A stretch of 64,000 nt of DNA from an uncultured Marinoscillum sp. (lineage in GTDB: Bacteria; Bacteroidota; Bacteroidia; Cytophagales; MED-G16): NCBI GenBank assembly GCA_902634135.1, contig CACPJB010000001.1, positions 100,106 through 164,105 of the forward strand. Reading direction: 5' to 3'. Within the stretch, counting starts at the first letter, position 1; the number at the start of each line of letters is the position of its first letter. Under the pieces are notes generated by a model. That model was not told where the DNA came from, did no database searches, and was given only the letters and a program-made list of their open reading frames with translations. The translations under genes and the position numbers were made by a program. Positions 2,410 to 62,054 of this stretch are shown here, one piece after another.

Positions 2410-3720
2410 ATGGAAAAACAAAAAAAATATTATACTGCATTAGATATTGGGACATCAAAAATATGTGCCATAATTGCAGAAAAAACTGGAAATAATAAAT
2501 TAAAAATTATTGGTTTTTCTGAGACAGACTCTGAAGGAGTTTCTGAAGGGATGATACAAAATTTAATTAAAGCAACATCAAAGATCAAAGAGGTAGTAAA
2601 AAACGCTAGTGAAATGGCCCAAGTGCCTATTAAATATGTAAATGTAGGTATTGCAGGCAAACACATAAGAAGTTTTAGTACTCATCATTCAATTGGTCTT
2701 CAAAATAAAGAAAACGAACCTATAGAAATAAATAATTCTCATATTAAAAGATTAAAAGAAAGATCCAAGATGGCTGTTATTCCTACAAATCATAAAATTA
2801 TTCATAGCATGCATCAAAAATTTACTATTGATGAAGATCATGAATCAGTTGATCCAGTTGGTGAATATGGAAAAAAATTAGAGGCTGATTTTCACATTAT
2901 TAGTGCTAATAAAGTTGATATTAAAATAATGGAAGAATCAATAAGAAGATCGTATATTAAGTGTAAAAATTTAATTTTAGAGCCAATTGCCTCAAGCCTT
3001 GCACTTTTAGATGAAAATGATAAGGAAGATGGAATATGTTTAGTTGATATAGGAGGAGGTACAACAGATATATCAATATTTCATGAGAATATAATTAGAC
3101 ATACTGCAGTAATACCATTAGGTGGAGATATAGTTACTCAGGATATAAAAGAAGGACTTGGTCTTCCACGGCATCATGCTGAAGCTTTAAAAATTAAATT
3201 TGGGAAAGCATTATATGTAAAAAGACCACTTAAGGAATATGTTAAGATCAAAGGTGAGGGACAAAGAGAAGATAAAAAAATATTATTAGATAATTTATAT
3301 AAAATCATTGAAGCACGTATGGAAGAAATTTTTGAGAAAGTCCATCAAGAGATTTTAAATAGTGGTATGAGTGAAAAACTATCTGCTGGGATTGTAATTA
3401 CAGGCGGGGGATCTCAACTTTTAAATTTAAAACAACAAGTAAAATATATAACTGGATTGGATGTAAGGAAAGGATATCCTTCATCTTATCTAACTAAATC
3501 AGATATTGTAAACCTTGAATTCCCTAAATATTCAACTTCTGTAGGGCTTTTATTATGGGATTATGTAAATTCTTTTGGAATTTCAGATGAGATTGATAAA
3601 ATGTCATCTTCAACATCCTCACTTCCAAAAGTTAATAATTTTGGTAAATTAGTTACAGAAAGAATCAAAGGGTTTTTAAAAGATGATGATTTAACTGAAT
3701 TTAAAGATGAAAACAAATAA
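2410..3720 (+). CDS. ftsA: Cell division protein FtsA (actin-like ATPase)
   Basis: Phosphate-binding motifs ALDIGTSKICAII and VDIGGGTTDISIF; immediately upstream of ftsZ. Confidence 0.9.
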   Translation: MEKQKKYYTALDIGTSKICAIIAEKTGNNKLKIIGFSETDSEGVSEGMIQNLIKATSKIKEVVKNASEMAQVPIKYVNVGIAGKHIRSFSTHHSIGLQNKENEPIEINNSHIKRLKERSKMAVIPTNHKIIHSMHQKFTIDEDHESVDPVGEYGKKLEADFHIISANKVDIKIMEESIRRSYIKCKNLILEPIASSLALLDENDKEDGICLVDIGGGTTDISIFHENIIRHTAVIPLGGDIVTQDIKEGLGLPRHHAEALKIKFGKALYVKRPLKEYVKIKGEGQREDKKILLDNLYKIIEARMEEIFEKVHQEILNSGMSEKLSAGIVITGGGSQLLNLKQQVKYITGLDVRKGYPSSYLTKSDIVNLEFPKYSTSVGLLLWDYVNSFGISDEIDKMSSSTSSLPKVNNFGKLVTERIKGFLKDDDLTEFKDENK

Positions 3721-3722
3721 TT

Positions 3723-5147
3723 ATGGCATTTGAATTTGATATGCCTTCTCACCATAAATCAATAATTAAAGTTATTGGTGTTGGAGGTGGTGGAAGTAAT
3801 GCAGTAAACTATATGAACTCAATTGGCATCAGAAATGTTGAATTTATTATATGTAACACAGATATTCAAGCATTACATTCTTCAAATGTTAAAAATCAAC
3901 TTCAAATAGGGATGGAGCTGACAAAGGGTCTTGGAGCAGGAGCAAATCCTGAAAAAGGTAAAGAGGCCGCACATGAGAGTAGTCATGAAATAAGAGAAAT
4001 GCTTAGAAATGATGGGACAAAAATGTTATTTATAACTGCTGGAATGGGAGGTGGAACAGGCACAGGAGCAGCTCCAATTATTGCACAAATAGCTAAAGAA
4101 TTAGATATTTTAACTGTTGGAATTGTTACTCTTCCTTTTGATTTTGAGGGTAAATCTAAAATGGAAAAGGCCTTAATTGGGGTTGATGAGTTAAAAAAAG
4201 GTTGTGACAGTGTAATTACGATATTAAATCAAAGACTGATTGAAATTTATGGTGATCTAAGCCAATCTAAAGCATTTCAAAAAGCAGATGATATTATAGC
4301 TACAAGTGCAAAATGTATTGCAGAAATTGTAACTGTACCTGGACAAATAAATGTTGATTTTGAGGATGTAAAAACAGTTATGAAAAATGCTGGCACTTCA
4401 GTTTTAGGCTCTGCAGAGTCATCTGGAGAAGATAGAGCTAAAAATGCAATTGAAAATGCAATTAATTCACCTTTATTAAATGATCAAAGTATATTAGGAG
4501 CAAAAAAAATACTTCTCAATATAGTTTCTGGTGGTGCTGATAATGAATTAACTACTATTGAACTAAATACTATTACAAAATTAGTAAATGAATCATCTTC
4601 AGCTAATGTTGAAATAATTTTCGGAACAGCTATTGATGGGGAATTAGATGATATGGTAAGAGTTACAATTATTGCAACAGGTTTTGATTTAAATAATAAT
4701 TCATTTGAAAATAATAATCTTATTAATGAAATTAAACATAACCAAACAAATTTATTTGAAGAAAATAATGTTGAGTTTATGAAGAGAGTTGATGAACCAA
4801 TAGAAGAGGTTATTCATAATATTGATGATGATTATAAAGAGTATGAAGATAATTTTGATTCAATTAGTGGTGAAAATATTGATATCAATGATAAAAGTGA
4901 TGAAGTTATTATTGAAGAACTTGATTCTTCAGAGCCATTTGACTATGAGAATTCTTCGAATAAAAAGAATGAATATTTAAAAAAAAGAAATAAGAGAATT
5001 AATCATTTTAATGATAAAAATTTTTCAGAAGAAACATATGAACAAAAATTAGCTATTCCAGCTTACAAAAGAAAAAATATAAATTTAGATAATGAAGCTT
5101 CTGATAATGATCAAACTAAAACTCTAGATTTTACTGAGGAAGATTAA
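3723..5147 (+). CDS. ftsZ: Cell division GTPase FtsZ
   Basis: Motifs GVGGGGSNAVN and the tubulin signature GMGGGTGTGAAP. A long acidic/Asn-rich linker is followed by a C-terminal conserved peptide, LAIPAYKRKN. Confidence 0.95.
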   Translation: MAFEFDMPSHHKSIIKVIGVGGGGSNAVNYMNSIGIRNVEFIICNTDIQALHSSNVKNQLQIGMELTKGLGAGANPEKGKEAAHESSHEIREMLRNDGTKMLFITAGMGGGTGTGAAPIIAQIAKELDILTVGIVTLPFDFEGKSKMEKALIGVDELKKGCDSVITILNQRLIEIYGDLSQSKAFQKADDIIATSAKCIAEIVTVPGQINVDFEDVKTVMKNAGTSVLGSAESSGEDRAKNAIENAINSPLLNDQSILGAKKILLNIVSGGADNELTTIELNTITKLVNESSSANVEIIFGTAIDGELDDMVRVTIIATGFDLNNNSFENNNLINEIKHNQTNLFEENNVEFMKRVDEPIEEVIHNIDDDYKEYEDNFDSISGENIDINDKSDEVIIEELDSSEPFDYENSSNKKNEYLKKRNKRINHFNDKNFSEETYEQKLAIPAYKRKNINLDNEASDNDQTKTLDFTEED

Positions 5148-58805: not shown

Positions 58806-59021
58806 TTATTTAGGTAACTTAAATAAGTCCTCAACCTTACACTTTAGTGTTTTTGAAATTTTCAATGCAAGTACTGTAGATGGTACATAAATTCCATTCT
58901 CAATTGCGTTGATGCTTTTTCTTGAAACTCCAGCACTCTCAGATAAATCTTGCTGAGTCAGACCAGCAGATTTTCTAAGTTCTTCAAGATTATTAAGAAG
59001 ATTTTTGTGGTCTCTACCCAA
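58806..59021 (-). CDS. XRE family helix-turn-helix transcriptional regulator (71 aa)
   Basis: HTH_XRE pattern LRKSAGLTQQDLSESAGVSRKSINAIENG. It lies 2 nt downstream of the membrane-protein gene. Confidence 0.85.
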   Translation of the reverse strand: MGRDHKNLLNNLEELRKSAGLTQQDLSESAGVSRKSINAIENGIYVPSTVLALKISKTLKCKVEDLFKLPK

Positions 59022-59023
59022 AA

Positions 59024-59455
59024 TTATTTCTTTTCAAAGCTTTCAACAGCATTGTTTATTTCATCGGCTTGATTTGGATATACATATCCTGCTATCATTT
59101 GTCCAACTCCTATAAACATAACAAGTAAACCTACACCAAATACTATATCTGTTCTAAGACCATAATAATCAAAAGCAGCAAGACCAACTCCAGTGAAAAT
59201 TGTTACTAGACCTGTTTTTCTATAGTCAGTATTTGATTTTTTTCCTTGTCTAAAAGAATTTAAAAGATCTTTTACCTCATCTGAATCTTTTATATTTTTA
59301 GATACTTCGATAAGAGCATTATATTTATTTTTTTTATTTTTTGACTCATAAAAAAATACTATAAATATTATTAATACTGGTAATAGGATACCAAATATTG
59401 GAATTAATAAACTTAAATTTACTAGGTGTTGTGAATGTAATAGAATGGTTAACAT
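59024..59455 (-). CDS. Hypothetical membrane protein (143 aa), co-operonic with the XRE regulator
   Basis: An N-terminal TM (LSLLIPIFGILLPVLIIFIVFFY), a charged loop, then two more TMs (GLVTIFTGVGLAAF, VFGVGLLVMFIGVGQMIAG). I recognise no family. Confidence 0.55.
   Translation of the reverse strand: MLTILLHSQHLVNLSLLIPIFGILLPVLIIFIVFFYESKNKKNKYNALIEVSKNIKDSDEVKDLLNSFRQGKKSNTDYRKTGLVTIFTGVGLAAFDYYGLRTDIVFGVGLLVMFIGVGQMIAGYVYPNQADEINNAVESFEKK
59429..59440 (+). repeat. 12-mer TTGTGAATGTAA, copy 1 (inside the 5' end of the membrane-protein CDS)
   Basis: Exact copy of the 12-mer also found at 59589-59600, and 11/12 identical to 59604-59615. Confidence 0.6.
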
Positions 59456-59478: not shown

Positions 59479-59527
59479 AATGTAACGCAAACTTATCATA
59501 ATTTAAATGAGAAGCAAAGGTTACATT
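59479..59527 (-). promoter_or_regulatory. Bacteroidetes-type promoter (TTG-N19-TAAGTTTG) bracketed by inverted repeat AATGTAAC / GTTACATT: candidate operator of the membrane-protein/XRE operon
   Basis: On the minus strand: -33 TTG at 59517-59515, a 19-nt spacer, and -7 TAAGTTTG at 59495-59488. The 8-bp inverted-repeat arms at 59479-59486 and 59520-59527 flank both boxes. The operon ATG is at 59455. Confidence 0.45.
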
Positions 59528-59583
59528 GTTTTTTTTAAAAAATACTGAATTTGTATATAAATATTTTTTTTTACCTTTAGTAT

Positions 59584-59652
59584 ATGAATTGTGAATGTAA
59601 AAATTGTGAATGTACTAATACTTGCAGCGATTGTAATTGCTGTGATTGTTAG
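59584..59652 (+). CDS. Unannotated micro-ORF: 22-aa cysteine-rich peptide MNCECKNCECTNTCSDCNCCDC
   Basis: ATG at 59584 and TAG at 59650-59652, read directly. 9 of 22 residues are Cys, in CxC/CxxC/CC arrangement. It is below the ORF-track length threshold. Coding status is unproven, because an alternative +1 frame and a DNA-repeat explanation both exist. Confidence 0.3.
   Translation: MNCECKNCECTNTCSDCNCCDC
59589..59615 (+). repeat. Tandem direct repeat TTGTGAATGTAA / TTGTGAATGTAC (15-bp period) inside the micro-ORF
   Basis: 59589-59600 and 59604-59615 are 11/12 identical, and both match the copy at 59429-59440. Confidence 0.6.
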
Positions 59653-59703
59653 TTAGCTAATCTTAGCTTTTGAAAATAAAATTTCTGTTTGTTTTTTTAT
59701 GTT

Positions 59704-59850
59704 ATGGATCCACTTGGTATTTTTTTTATTTTATTATTTATAATATTCTTCACTTGGTTGTTTTATAAGGGGTATAAAGCCTATAAAAAAAATGGTTGGA
59801 ATGATCCTTTTTTCAATGGAGATAATGGAGGATTTAATAATTTCGGTTAA
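59704..59850 (+). CDS. Unannotated micro-ORF: 48-aa single-TM peptide MDPLGIFFILLFIIFFTWLFYKGYKAYKKNGWNDPFFNGDNGGFNNFG
   Basis: ATG at 59704 and TAA at 59848-59850, read directly. An N-terminal hydrophobic helix is followed by a basic patch and a G/N/F-rich tail. It is below the ORF-track threshold. Confidence 0.3.
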   Translation: MDPLGIFFILLFIIFFTWLFYKGYKAYKKNGWNDPFFNGDNGGFNNFG

Positions 59851-59946
59851 TTAGGGAATTGATTCAATCTTATGTTGATATTTATCATGCTTTGAATGAT
59901 AGGAAAACCTACAGAATCAGCTCTTGCAATAGTAAATTAATAGATT

Positions 59947-59954
59947 TACATTTG
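59947..59954 (+). promoter_or_regulatory. Candidate -7 promoter box (TACATTTG) for tRNA-Arg
   Basis: Exact TAnnTTTG match ending 12 nt before the mature tRNA 5' end, nearly the same spacing as at tRNA-Ser. Confidence 0.45.
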
Positions 59955-59966
59955 CCAACATTATCT

Positions 59967-60040
59967 GGTTCCGTAGCTCAACTGGATAGAGCAACTGCCT
60001 TCTAAGCAGTAGGTTGAAGGTTCGAGTCCTTCCGGAATCA
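59967..60040 (+). tRNA. tRNA-Arg (anticodon TCT)
   Basis: Folded by hand: acceptor GGTTCCG/CGGAATC (one G-U), D-arm GCTC-AACTGGATA-GAGC, anticodon stem ACTGC/GCAGT with loop CTTCTAA, T-arm GAAGG-TTCGAGT-CCTTC, discriminator A; 74 nt. Confidence 0.9.
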
Positions 60041-60044
60041 CAAA

Positions 60045-62054
60045 TCAATTATAATTAGGTAGAGTAGTATACTTTTTTGCGTAATCAAGCATCTGAGTTG
60101 CAAAGTCTTTTGGTTGTACTACTGTAATATCAATTATTTCATTTGATTCATTATATACTGGTACTAATTCAGGATTTATAAATCCACTGTAAGGCGCAGT
60201 ATTAAATTTCTCATTTCTTTTCAAAATTTCTTCGTGTAACTTCTGATCTATTTTTACACCATAATTTTCGATCAAGTTTTTACCAGCCTCATAATCACCT
60301 TCAGATTTTATTCTTTGAACTTCTCTCAATAACTCTCCAAAAAGCTCTCTAAGTTTTTTATAGTCATTAATTACAAAATATGTCTTTCCATTTTCAACTA
60401 TTTTTTCAATTACATTTTCAGACTTTCCTTTTTCATATACCCACTTAGACACTGTCTGTCTGTTTCTCATATGAGACTGTTCTATGTCATCACCTAGTTT
60501 TATTCTAATTAACTGAGTCATGAGACCATTTCTTATGTAGTCATCATAACTTACTCTTCCCATCTCTTCTGATGAGTGAGCAACACCTAATTCTTCCATT
60601 TTTTTATCTGGAATAAAGTATAATCCTACAAGGTCAGCTCTAGCTTCTTCTAAAGTTGAAGCATAACTTTTTAATGTCTCTTTAGGAGTACCTACACCTT
60701 CAACTAATTGACCTGAGGCGTGACCAATAACTTCGTGTAATGAGGTATGAAGATTGTCTGCTTCTTTACCATATTTTTTTTCTAGCTCGATCCCCTCTTT
60801 ATCATAACCAAACTCTTCTAATCTTCCTGACGACCCTGCTTGTCCATAAGCAAATAGTATATTTCCTAATGAAATAGATTTTGAACCGTGATTTGCTCTA
60901 ATCCAGTTTGCATTTGGAAGATTAATACCAATTGGAGTAGAAGGAGAAGCATCACCTGACTCTCCTGCAACATTAACGGTGTTATATGAAATTCCAACAA
61001 CGTTTTTCTTTTTATGTTCGTCCATTATTGTGGAATTATCTTCAAACCATTGAGCATCTTCTGAAATAGCAAACATTTTTCTGCTCATTTCAAAATCTTT
61101 TATCTGGACAACAGACTCATATGAACCTCTATACCCCTTTGGATCGTTATAAACTTCGATGAATCCATTAATGTAATCGACATCACCTTCTGTAGTTTCA
61201 ACCCATGCAATATTATAATCATCCCAAATTTTTAAGTCACCTGTCTTATAGTATTCAATAAGTAGATCAAATGCTTTTTTTTGTTTTTCATTCTCAGCAA
61301 CTTCTTTAGCTTTTTCAATCCATAAAATGATTTTTTCAATGGAATTTGAATACATACCACCTACTTTATATGTTTTTTCAATTAATTCTCCATTTTCTCT
61401 TACCAATTTCGAGTTAAGTCCAAATGAGAGAGGTTTATTAGGGTCTGGTGATTTTTTATTTGCATAAAAATCATCAACATCTTTTTCTTTAACGTCTTCT
61501 CCATAAAAGTTAACAGCAGAGCCTATTACAAGTCCTTTGCTTTGGTCTCTATTTACTTTTTTGGAGTCGTTGTCATTAAAAATAACTTCAAAAGCTTCTT
61601 TATTTAATTCTGTTTTAGTTTCAGATAGCAAGTATTTTAGGTATTCTGAAGAGAAGTTTGGATCAAATTTATCATTTGAGTAATGGTGGTGAATTCCATT
61701 TGCAAACCATATTCTTTTTAGATAGATCTCAAAATTTAACCATTCTTCTGACTTTTTATCTCCATCATAATTTGAGTAAATTTTTTCAAGAGCTCTTCTA
61801 ATGGAAAGATTATGTCTATAATTTTGGTCGTACATGATGTCTCTTCCAGCGAGTCCTGCTTCTGTAAGAAAGTATACTAGTTTTTTTTGTTTTAATGTCA
61901 GCTCATCAAATCCTGGAATTTGATACCTCAAAACCTGTATATCTTTAAATTTTTCTCCAAAAAAATCAAAATTTAATTTTTCTACTTCAGGAGTTGAGCA
62001 GGAATAAGAACTAATTATTAATAGTATTATTATGAATATTTTCTTTTTTAACAT
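60045..62054 (-). CDS. Dipeptidyl-peptidase III-like M49 family metallopeptidase, lipoprotein
   Basis: 669 aa with lipobox SSYSC and M49 zinc motifs HEVIGH and EEARAD. Confidence 0.8.
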   Translation of the reverse strand: MLKKKIFIIILLIISSYSCSTPEVEKLNFDFFGEKFKDIQVLRYQIPGFDELTLKQKKLVYFLTEAGLAGRDIMYDQNYRHNLSIRRALEKIYSNYDGDKKSEEWLNFEIYLKRIWFANGIHHHYSNDKFDPNFSSEYLKYLLSETKTELNKEAFEVIFNDNDSKKVNRDQSKGLVIGSAVNFYGEDVKEKDVDDFYANKKSPDPNKPLSFGLNSKLVRENGELIEKTYKVGGMYSNSIEKIILWIEKAKEVAENEKQKKAFDLLIEYYKTGDLKIWDDYNIAWVETTEGDVDYINGFIEVYNDPKGYRGSYESVVQIKDFEMSRKMFAISEDAQWFEDNSTIMDEHKKKNVVGISYNTVNVAGESGDASPSTPIGINLPNANWIRANHGSKSISLGNILFAYGQAGSSGRLEEFGYDKEGIELEKKYGKEADNLHTSLHEVIGHASGQLVEGVGTPKETLKSYASTLEEARADLVGLYFIPDKKMEELGVAHSSEEMGRVSYDDYIRNGLMTQLIRIKLGDDIEQSHMRNRQTVSKWVYEKGKSENVIEKIVENGKTYFVINDYKKLRELFGELLREVQRIKSEGDYEAGKNLIENYGVKIDQKLHEEILKRNEKFNTAPYSGFINPELVPVYNESNEIIDITVVQPKDFATQMLDYAKKYTTLPNYN

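Follow-up and report, generated by a model that had tools for sequence, protein, structure and literature searches.

A 22-codon, nine-cysteine open reading frame of marine Bacteroidota and its phage relatives as a candidate metallothionein-like microprotein

Introduction

Is a 22-codon open reading frame (ORF) with nine cysteine codons a gene and, if it is, what could so small a protein do? The question is raised by positions 59584-59652 of the DNA analysed here, a 64,000-nucleotide (nt) stretch of contig CACPJB010000001.1 from an uncultured Marinoscillum sp. (hereafter the window). A first-pass annotation of the window had drawn attention to this ORF and had suggested that codon-level conservation in syntenic relatives would be one way to judge it.

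Results

A reading frame far denser in cysteine than chance

59584..59652, plus strand: 22-codon cysteine-rich coding sequence with TAG stop, from the sequence and the ORF list; product MNCECKNCECTNTCSDCNCCDC

The ORF runs from an ATG at 59584 to a TAG at 59650-59652, with the position, stop and translation given in the first-pass annotation, and an N-terminal extension is excluded by an in-frame TAG at 59578-59580. Nine of the 22 residues of its peptide (41%) are cysteines, encoded by seven TGT and two TGC codons and arranged as C-x-C-x2-C-x-C-x3-C-x2-C-x-C-C-x-C, with the first cysteine (Cys1) at residue 3. The peptide contains an internal duplication of 15 nt, or five codons, seen as NCECK and NCECT. 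Over all six frames of the 64-kb window this ORF is the only 22-codon stop-free stretch with more than five cysteines, and 200 simulations of the window under a first-order Markov model reached no more than six per 22-codon stretch. Its cysteine density is far above chance.

Relatives in marine bacteria and phages

Relatives were first sought through the neighbouring DUF6249 protein in contigs representing one genome per species, which gave two loci. One of them (L001, with 98% identity in DUF6249) carries the ORF, with three synonymous changes (GAT to GAC, TGT to TGC and AAT to AAC), a TAA in place of the TAG stop and two conservative replacements, N12S and T13S; 3' of the stop its sequence cannot be aligned to the window. 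The other (L002, 70% identity) is without the ORF. Their records are labelled as metagenome-assembled genomes of Flammeovirgaceae and Flavobacteriaceae, respectively, a taxonomy that is approximate only.

We also scanned DNA directly for the cysteine spacing, using a pattern that demanded neither a start nor a stop codon. In its first form this pattern returned 97 viral stretches, nearly all of them low-complexity CxC/CCx repeats, and it picked out three IMG/VR contigs with a 23-codon ORF whose spacing is identical to that in the window. A refined pattern, with T barred at the first base of most filler codons, returned 93 stretches from metagenomes, about half of which were noise of the (TG)n type and the others stand-alone micro-ORFs. 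Each genuine match had a methionine codon one or two codons before Cys1 (GTG in one case) and a stop right after the ninth cysteine (Cys9), features that every one of the low-complexity false matches was without.

The micro-ORFs from the refined pattern, together with those of the window, L001 and the three contigs of the viral scan, fell into two types. The bacterial type (n = 28 ORFs), in DNA of 26-36% GC, reads M[ND]C[EN]C[KQ][ND]C[EDQ]C[TV]xxCxxCxCCDC and then stops; the phage type (n = 11 ORFs) reads MSECGC[KE][DN]CxCNGGCM[ND]CxCCxC before its stop, as in the form MSECGCKDCICNGGCMNCKCCKC. Since the spacing pattern fixes the cysteine codons, we added a sampling by synteny, anchored on DUF6249 homologues with 97% (P0008) and 86% (P0098) identity, plus L001. 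The first two anchors gave 20 loci from different samples, some on contigs of 1.3-1.5 Mb, and an intact 22-codon ORF stands in the same divergent position in all 20 of them (21 of 21 with L001). These loci added new filler variants (T11N, D16E and N18S/K), and no gene call is listed at any of their ORF sites. The spacing scan and the two neighbour-anchored samplings recovered about 48 bacterial and 11 phage loci in total, and every member with this spacing has the nine-cysteine framework unchanged. Judged by these sequence comparisons, the ORF belongs to a previously unannotated family of putative cysteine-rich microproteins in low-GC (26-36%) marine Bacteroidota and uncultivated marine phages.

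Selection acts on the cysteine frame

Codons were compared among 23 distinct bacterial-type DNA sequences. TGT and TGC are both used in all nine cysteine columns, serine at positions 12 and 13 is written with both the AGY and the TCN codon families, and the invariant D21 is encoded by GAC as well as GAT. The stop is TAA or TAG, and ATG to GTG is the only start-codon change seen. Variable sites number 11/5/20 at codon positions 1/2/3. Summed over all pairs, the cysteine frame has a ratio of nonsynonymous (pN) to synonymous (pS) differences per site of 0.15 among bacterial-type and 0.13 among phage-type sequences; each of the remaining five frames either is broken by stops or reaches a pN/pS of 1.1-5.2. 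For the neighbour-anchored set pS is 0.12-0.88 versus a pN of 0-0.09. No internal stop interrupts the cysteine frame in 31 distinct sequences, and in the more diverged locus pairs mostly only 26-50% of the 100 nt past the stop can be aligned. Purifying selection is thus found in this frame only, with start and stop kept across diverged relatives, and the comparison suggested at the outset clearly favours a translated gene. The ORF is almost certainly a real protein-coding gene, and its translation in vivo is predicted from this pattern of substitution.

We weighed these results against the possibility that the locus is no gene at all, either because its TGT-rich direct repeats are XRE operators or an RNA motif, or because a hydrophobic ORF in the +1 frame (59591-59656) is the real product. 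Some features of the DNA do speak for such a reading: all three exact copies of the 11-mer TTGTGAATGTA in the window fall within 190 bp, the 3' half of the ORF holds a 10-bp hairpin at 59622-59645 (TTGCAGCGAT-TGTA-ATTGCTGTGA) with a local RNA fold z-score of -3.1, and the +1-frame ORF comprises 21 hydrophobic codons. However, the third copy of the 11-mer (59429-59439, at the 5' end of the DUF6249 gene) is probably coincidental, because just 5 of 30 related loci have an exact copy there, and the two copies within the ORF follow from the NCECK/NCECT peptide repeat. Frequent TGT-to-TGC changes would break a TGT/UGU motif yet keep the cysteine, lineages without the ORF still have an operator-like inverted repeat at 59479-59527, and a search of the region against Rfam gave no match other than the tRNA. 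Operators within the ORF were rejected, the third 11-mer not being conserved and the true operator-like repeat lying elsewhere. A conserved RNA structure was rejected as well, since the 59622-59645 hairpin is lineage-specific and the RNAalifold consensus amounts to -1.1 kcal/mol. The +1-frame ORF fails as a product, with a pN/pS of 1.74 and a GTG start that is lost in some sequences; taken over the full 69 nt, the +1 frame has internal stops in 17 of 23 sequences. A non-gene explanation therefore appears largely refuted, and we find it scarcely credible.

The ORF is independent of its neighbours

58806-59021, minus strand: XRE/HTH_3 regulator (domain match)
59024-59455, minus strand: DUF6249 membrane protein (Pfam, E=6.7e-18)
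59967-60041: tRNA-Arg(TCT), downstream of the ORF

The ORF lies divergent to an XRE-regulated operon, as the first-pass annotation had it, with the DUF6249 and XRE/HTH_3 genes both on the minus strand. On its other side follow a 48-53-codon hydrophobic ORF, the tRNA-Arg(TCT) gene and an M49 peptidase gene. The association with the operon is incidental, because the ORF outlives deletion of the operon and is missing where operon and operator are kept. At three loci (L110, L160 and L169) DUF6249-XRE has been deleted to a remnant and the ORF is retained; in DUF6249 lineages at 84% (P0117) and 87% (P0105) identity the operator-like inverted repeat is kept and there is no trace of the ORF. We rejected a functional link between the ORF and DUF6249-XRE because the ORF survives loss of that operon and is absent from lineages at 70%, 84% and 87% identity. 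In other clades the ORF is found upstream of a DUF285 lipoprotein gene or near genes for an ion channel or a 73-residue membrane protein, and at one locus it sits between DoxX and a thioredoxin-rhodanese gene. Its persistence after deletion of DUF6249-XRE and its placement in different neighbourhoods thus indicate an independent gene that is not part of the XRE module.

The same neighbourhoods bear on the suggestion that the peptide is the precursor of a modified or secreted product, be it the core of a ribosomally synthesized and post-translationally modified peptide (RiPP), as the first-pass annotation had considered, a chalkophore-like metallophore or a disulfide-rich toxin. It is small and cysteine-rich, as are the cores of some sactipeptide, ranthipeptide and methanobactin precursors. 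Nevertheless, leader, follower, signal peptide and GG motif are all missing from it, and no NCBIfam model of RiPP precursors matched it. In at least four unrelated bacterial neighbourhoods and in the phage operons, no gene for a radical-SAM enzyme, cyclodehydratase, MbnB/C-like protein, protease or ABC exporter was adjacent; for the window itself, an earlier remark that the ORF has no maturase, radical-SAM or transporter neighbour agrees with the domain content of the six neighbouring proteins scanned, none of which has such a domain. The lack of a leader and the constant absence of a maturase weaken the case for a RiPP core, and we consider any precursor of this kind very unlikely.

Several observations were made on the surroundings in their own right. 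The small hydrophobic ORF at 59704-59850 (plus strand; 48 residues from the ATG at 59704, MDPLGIFFILLFIIFFTWLFYKGYKAYKKNGW...) is likely a real small membrane protein; it shows 81-85% amino acid identity in L001, L137 and L175, where it lies about 880 nt from the micro-ORF, beyond an inserted gene. The inverted repeat at 59479-59527 (AATGTAACGCAAAC...GCAAAGGTTACATT), between the DUF6249-XRE operon and the micro-ORF, is kept in L001, in L002 and in DUF6249 lineages without the micro-ORF, and probably serves the XRE regulator as its autoregulatory operator. It is overlapped by TAAGTTTG at 59488-59495, a -7-like box for the minus-strand operon. Strains with identical DUF6249 (L193-L202) differ 3' of the micro-ORF, where unnamed ORFs of 80, 119 or 143 residues come first and are followed by acid phosphatase and sulfatase, M49 peptidase or DUF6090 genes. 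Some loci (cluster c0, for example L189) have ORFs that by eye resemble fragments of a family-A DNA polymerase and have no Pfam domain. The micro-ORF seems to border a variable, possibly phage-scarred stretch beside tRNA-Arg (about 59650-60045 in the window). At two loci (L272, 1249-2484, and L274, 700-1935) a DUF6249-XRE module without the micro-ORF adjoins a gene for a CobW/COG0523-type GTPase, a family often tied to zinc homeostasis. Finally, L002 has three copies of an element of about 21 nt resembling GAAGAAGATAGCTATGGTTTA at about 3290-3900, at the ends of successive small genes upstream of its DUF6249 homologue.

A hypervariable slot in phage genomes

The gene that precedes the phage-type ORF encodes a 430-residue protein, and we surveyed the slot just 3' of it in 59 IMG/VR loci (L213-L271) encoding relatives of this protein with 71-100% identity. 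About half of the slots hold a cysteine-rich micro-ORF and the rest none, the 430-residue gene then leading straight to the next gene. The slot micro-ORFs encode 12-43 residues with 4-17 cysteines (examples are MCECENCQCGKK, MCDCCGCDCNCNCGK, MCECNGTCSCDCCDCCK, MCECKNCKCNESCGCGNCNC, MCNCNDCSCDKCLSGCTCTSCDC, MKKCDCCDCCNCGCGC and a 43-residue form), the shortest variants having four cysteines (MCECENCQCGKK), and one variant, MCECKNCKC..., has CECKNC in common with the window peptide. The slot is hypervariable, and such variation of length and cysteine number at one site is typical of modular metallothionein evolution. Most of the phage micro-ORFs have a GGAG Shine-Dalgarno sequence 7-9 nt upstream, and the stop of most overlaps the Shine-Dalgarno site of the next gene or abuts its ATG. 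Phage contigs also have a thioredoxin-like gene near the micro-ORF. The neighbouring phage genes yielded no informative domains from Pfam or PHROGs, and a tblastn search with the 430-residue protein against isolated phages found no relatives. As a separate observation, the gene after the slot is in several phage contigs a lipoprotein-like ORF with acidic residues directly past the lipobox cysteine.

Signals around the gene

59546..59553, plus strand: TGAATTTG, candidate Bacteroidota-type -7 box, within a conserved TTTG(G/T)ATA block
59564..59579, plus strand: T-run followed by TACCTTTA, ending 5 nt before the ATG, from an alignment of 26 distinct upstream regions
59655..59671, plus strand: 6-bp hairpin AGCTAA-TC-TTAGCT plus TTT, weak; possible weak terminator

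The TTTG(G/T)ATA block, about 35 nt before the ATG, is conserved in the window-like clade and in a second clade. Its copy in the window, TGAATTTG, resembles TAnnTTTG, which we take to be the Bacteroidota -7 consensus, and a TTG 17 nt further upstream (59526-59528) is a possible -33 element. A scan for sigma-70 consensus sites gave nothing above shuffle expectation. In the 26 upstream regions, TTTTTT-N-TA(C/T)(C/A)TTTA-N4-6-ATG is the sole block common to all bacterial clades; this block may set the context for translation initiation, or serve as an alternative -7 box and so give a nearly leaderless mRNA. Downstream, the hairpin that the first-pass annotation had placed just 3' of the ORF is indeed present at 59655-59668 and followed by TTT. 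It is intact in L110 and has arm mismatches in L160, L169 and L185. Another bacterial clade has a different hairpin and T-run from the stop codon onward, with stem changes on both sides between members. The mRNA of the ORF is probably very short and essentially monocistronic.

These hairpins raise the possibility, also voiced in the first-pass annotation, that the ORF serves regulation, as a leader peptide or an upstream ORF, in which the speed of the ribosome over nine cysteine codons would sense the supply of Cys-tRNA and control the hairpin after the stop or a coupled downstream gene. The ORF is certainly very dense in cysteine codons, the hairpin and T-run at or just past the stop have a covarying stem in one bacterial clade, the phage stops overlap the next gene's Shine-Dalgarno site or start codon, and phage micro-ORFs are as variable in length as leader peptides can be. 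But no gene related to cysteine, sulfur or tRNA-Cys follows the ORF, and the downstream genes differ wholly by clade (the small membrane ORF and tRNA-Arg, a DUF285 lipoprotein, an ion channel or a convergent gene). Cysteine spacing, the C-terminal Cys-stop and the polar filler are kept across the bacterial and phage types, none of which a codon-counting sensor needs, and, with an RNAalifold consensus of -1.1 kcal/mol over the ORF, no conserved antiterminator fold was identified. The leader reading is weakened by the missing cysteine operon and by the exact conservation of spacing and filler, and we think it decidedly improbable.

Composition and proposed function

Family peptides consist of 41-45% cysteine, with filler that is nearly all N/D/E/K/S/T/G and includes no proline, and none has a signal peptide or hydrophobic segment. 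F, W, Y and H are absent from all 29 peptides with the nine-cysteine spacing (bacterial and phage type), and the 13 phage-slot variants together have two tyrosines as their sole aromatics. The peptides thus display the operational hallmarks of metallothioneins: low mass, very high cysteine content, few or no aromatics and cysteines in C-x-C, C-x-x-C and C-C motifs.

We favour a metallothionein-like peptide because a metal-thiolate cluster is the simplest way to stabilise a chain of 22 residues that has nine thiols and lacks a hydrophobic core. In the mechanism that we propose, the gene would make a stand-alone 22-residue cytoplasmic microprotein with nine invariant cysteines, expressed from its own upstream signals. 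The nine thiolates would enclose soft metal ions, Zn(II), Cd(II) or Cu(I), as a single metal-thiolate cluster, by analogy with the Cys9 M3 beta-domain of animal metallothioneins or the fungal Cu-metallothioneins of about 25 residues. The peptide would buffer, store or detoxify trace metals, and might in addition serve as a thiol or redox sink. That the window peptide is such an intracellular metal-thiolate peptide, with metal binding predicted from composition and anatomy, is in our judgement an evenly balanced proposition. The first-pass annotation had spoken of a miniature metal-thiolate peptide; this stands as the best fit to composition and anatomy but finds no echo in a significant match to metallothionein families.

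Several points weigh against this reading. The contexts examined have no metal-sensing regulator, metal transporter or recognisable metal-responsive operator as a constant neighbour, and the peptides have no significant metallothionein similarity in Pfam or NCBIfam and no relatives in PDB. The subfamilies differ in net charge (-5 to -2 versus -3 to +1), so that a shared partner surface is not obvious. The pattern-based sample was ascertained on intact cysteine codons, a bias that spares only the 21 neighbour-anchored loci, which are close relatives of one another. Transcription, translation and metal binding of the peptide are all deduced from sequence.

Some of these points would suit a cysteine-rich microprotein that does not store metal, but acts as a thiol or redox buffer, as an iron-sulfur (Fe-S) or persulfide carrier, or as a zinc-knuckle-like modulator or inhibitor of a host protein. 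The coding evidence serves such a protein equally well. The locus with DoxX and thioredoxin-rhodanese, and the thioredoxin-like gene near phage copies, would fit a redox function, the four-cysteine phage variants suffice for one zinc site and not for a cluster, and a modulator of a host protein would suit a gene shared with phages. Across the contexts, however, no redox or Fe-S partner gene recurs, the ferredoxin-type CxxCxxCxxxC motif is absent, and nine close cysteines without a hydrophobic core are most simply held by a metal cluster. We regard a non-storage function as unlikely.

Discussion

Significance

We tentatively propose that the window peptide is the founding member of a new, ocean-wide family of metal-thiolate microproteins of 12-43 residues in abundant low-GC marine Bacteroidota and their phages, and that in the phages it is a hypervariable auxiliary gene. 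If so, these would be the smallest prokaryotic and the first phage-borne metallothioneins; they escape all gene callers, and they could be relevant to the handling of Zn, Cd and Cu, both during infection and in surface seawater. Standard gene finders apply a length cut-off that excludes ORFs of 22 codons. Nevertheless, every genome sampled through close DUF6249 neighbours, representing an abundant marine lineage, has the ORF intact, and the ORF turns up again in marine phages. Should the peptides bind metals, they would be an unrecognised component of trace-metal buffering in ocean bacteria and a new kind of phage auxiliary gene. More generally, conserved microprotein families missed by protein databases can be brought to light by scanning DNA for a residue spacing. 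With its small size the peptide lends itself to chemical synthesis, which makes the hypothesis directly testable.

Comparison with known systems

The window peptide had no match at E<=1 in Pfam or NCBIfam, and the best metallothionein match of any family member was that of one phage variant to Metallothio_Euk (E=0.49; 10.8 bits against a cutoff of 22). PHROGs gave nothing significant, a profile search of PDB gave 0 matches, and none of ten representative family peptides was found in a collection of about 15 billion proteins; the 43-residue phage variant had only two unnamed matches in a protein-database search. A tblastn search with two of the peptides against GenBank phages found no match, for which the low-complexity filter is probably responsible. 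In the literature library searched, we found no paper containing any of four family sequence strings, and work on bacterial and phage metallothioneins, on Bacteroidetes and on marine small-protein surveys contained nothing that describes the family. The earlier statement that the peptide belongs to no described bacterial family is thus borne out as far as significant matches in Pfam, NCBIfam, PHROGs and PDB are concerned. It is a compositional metallothionein, with metal binding predicted, yet by sequence it falls outside every curated metallothionein family.

Like RiPP precursors (SCIFF/ranthipeptide, sactipeptide and methanobactin MbnA), the window peptide is short, cysteine-rich and gene-encoded; unlike them, it is without a leader, an adjacent maturase or a match to an NCBIfam precursor model. 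With attenuator leader peptides it shares the form of a tiny unannotated ORF rich in one codon type, with a hairpin after it in some clades, but there is no cognate biosynthetic operon downstream, spacing, C-terminus and filler chemistry are conserved, and no conserved alternative fold was identified.

Among bacterial proteins, SmtA/BmtA (Pfam Metallothio_Pro) and MymT are cytoplasmic, cysteine-rich and metal-buffering, and SmtA has nine cysteines. SmtA/BmtA are about 55 residues long, with a zinc-finger-like fold and histidine ligands, and MymT is about 53 residues long. The window peptide resembles them as a cysteine-rich bacterial peptide that we propose to be cytoplasmic, but it has 22 residues, no histidine and no match to Metallothio_Pro, and it is to our knowledge shorter than any known bacterial metallothionein.

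In size the fungal Cu-metallothioneins of the Neurospora and Agaricus type, with about 25 residues and seven cysteines, come nearer. They had been named as comparable in the first-pass annotation, and the likeness holds for size and composition and not for cysteine spacing. The fungal family-8 signature is C-G-C-S-x4-C-x-C-x3,4-C-x-C-S-x-C; the window peptide departs from it in having x2 instead of S-x4 after the first CxC and in an extra CC. The phage-type peptides, in turn, begin with C-G-C...C-x-C-x3-C, which is like the fungal pattern. As a whole, the family differs from known mini-metallothioneins in cysteine spacing and in having bacteria and phages as carriers. What the window peptide shares with the mini-metallothioneins is a tiny size, about 41% cysteine, the CxC, CxxC and CC motifs, a lack of aromatics and of a signal peptide, and a filler of small polar or charged residues. 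The beta-domain of animal metallothioneins is described as M3Cys9, with nine cysteine ligands (PMC10243857), and the window peptide also has nine cysteines. Like the metallothioneins, too, its family varies in length and cysteine number.

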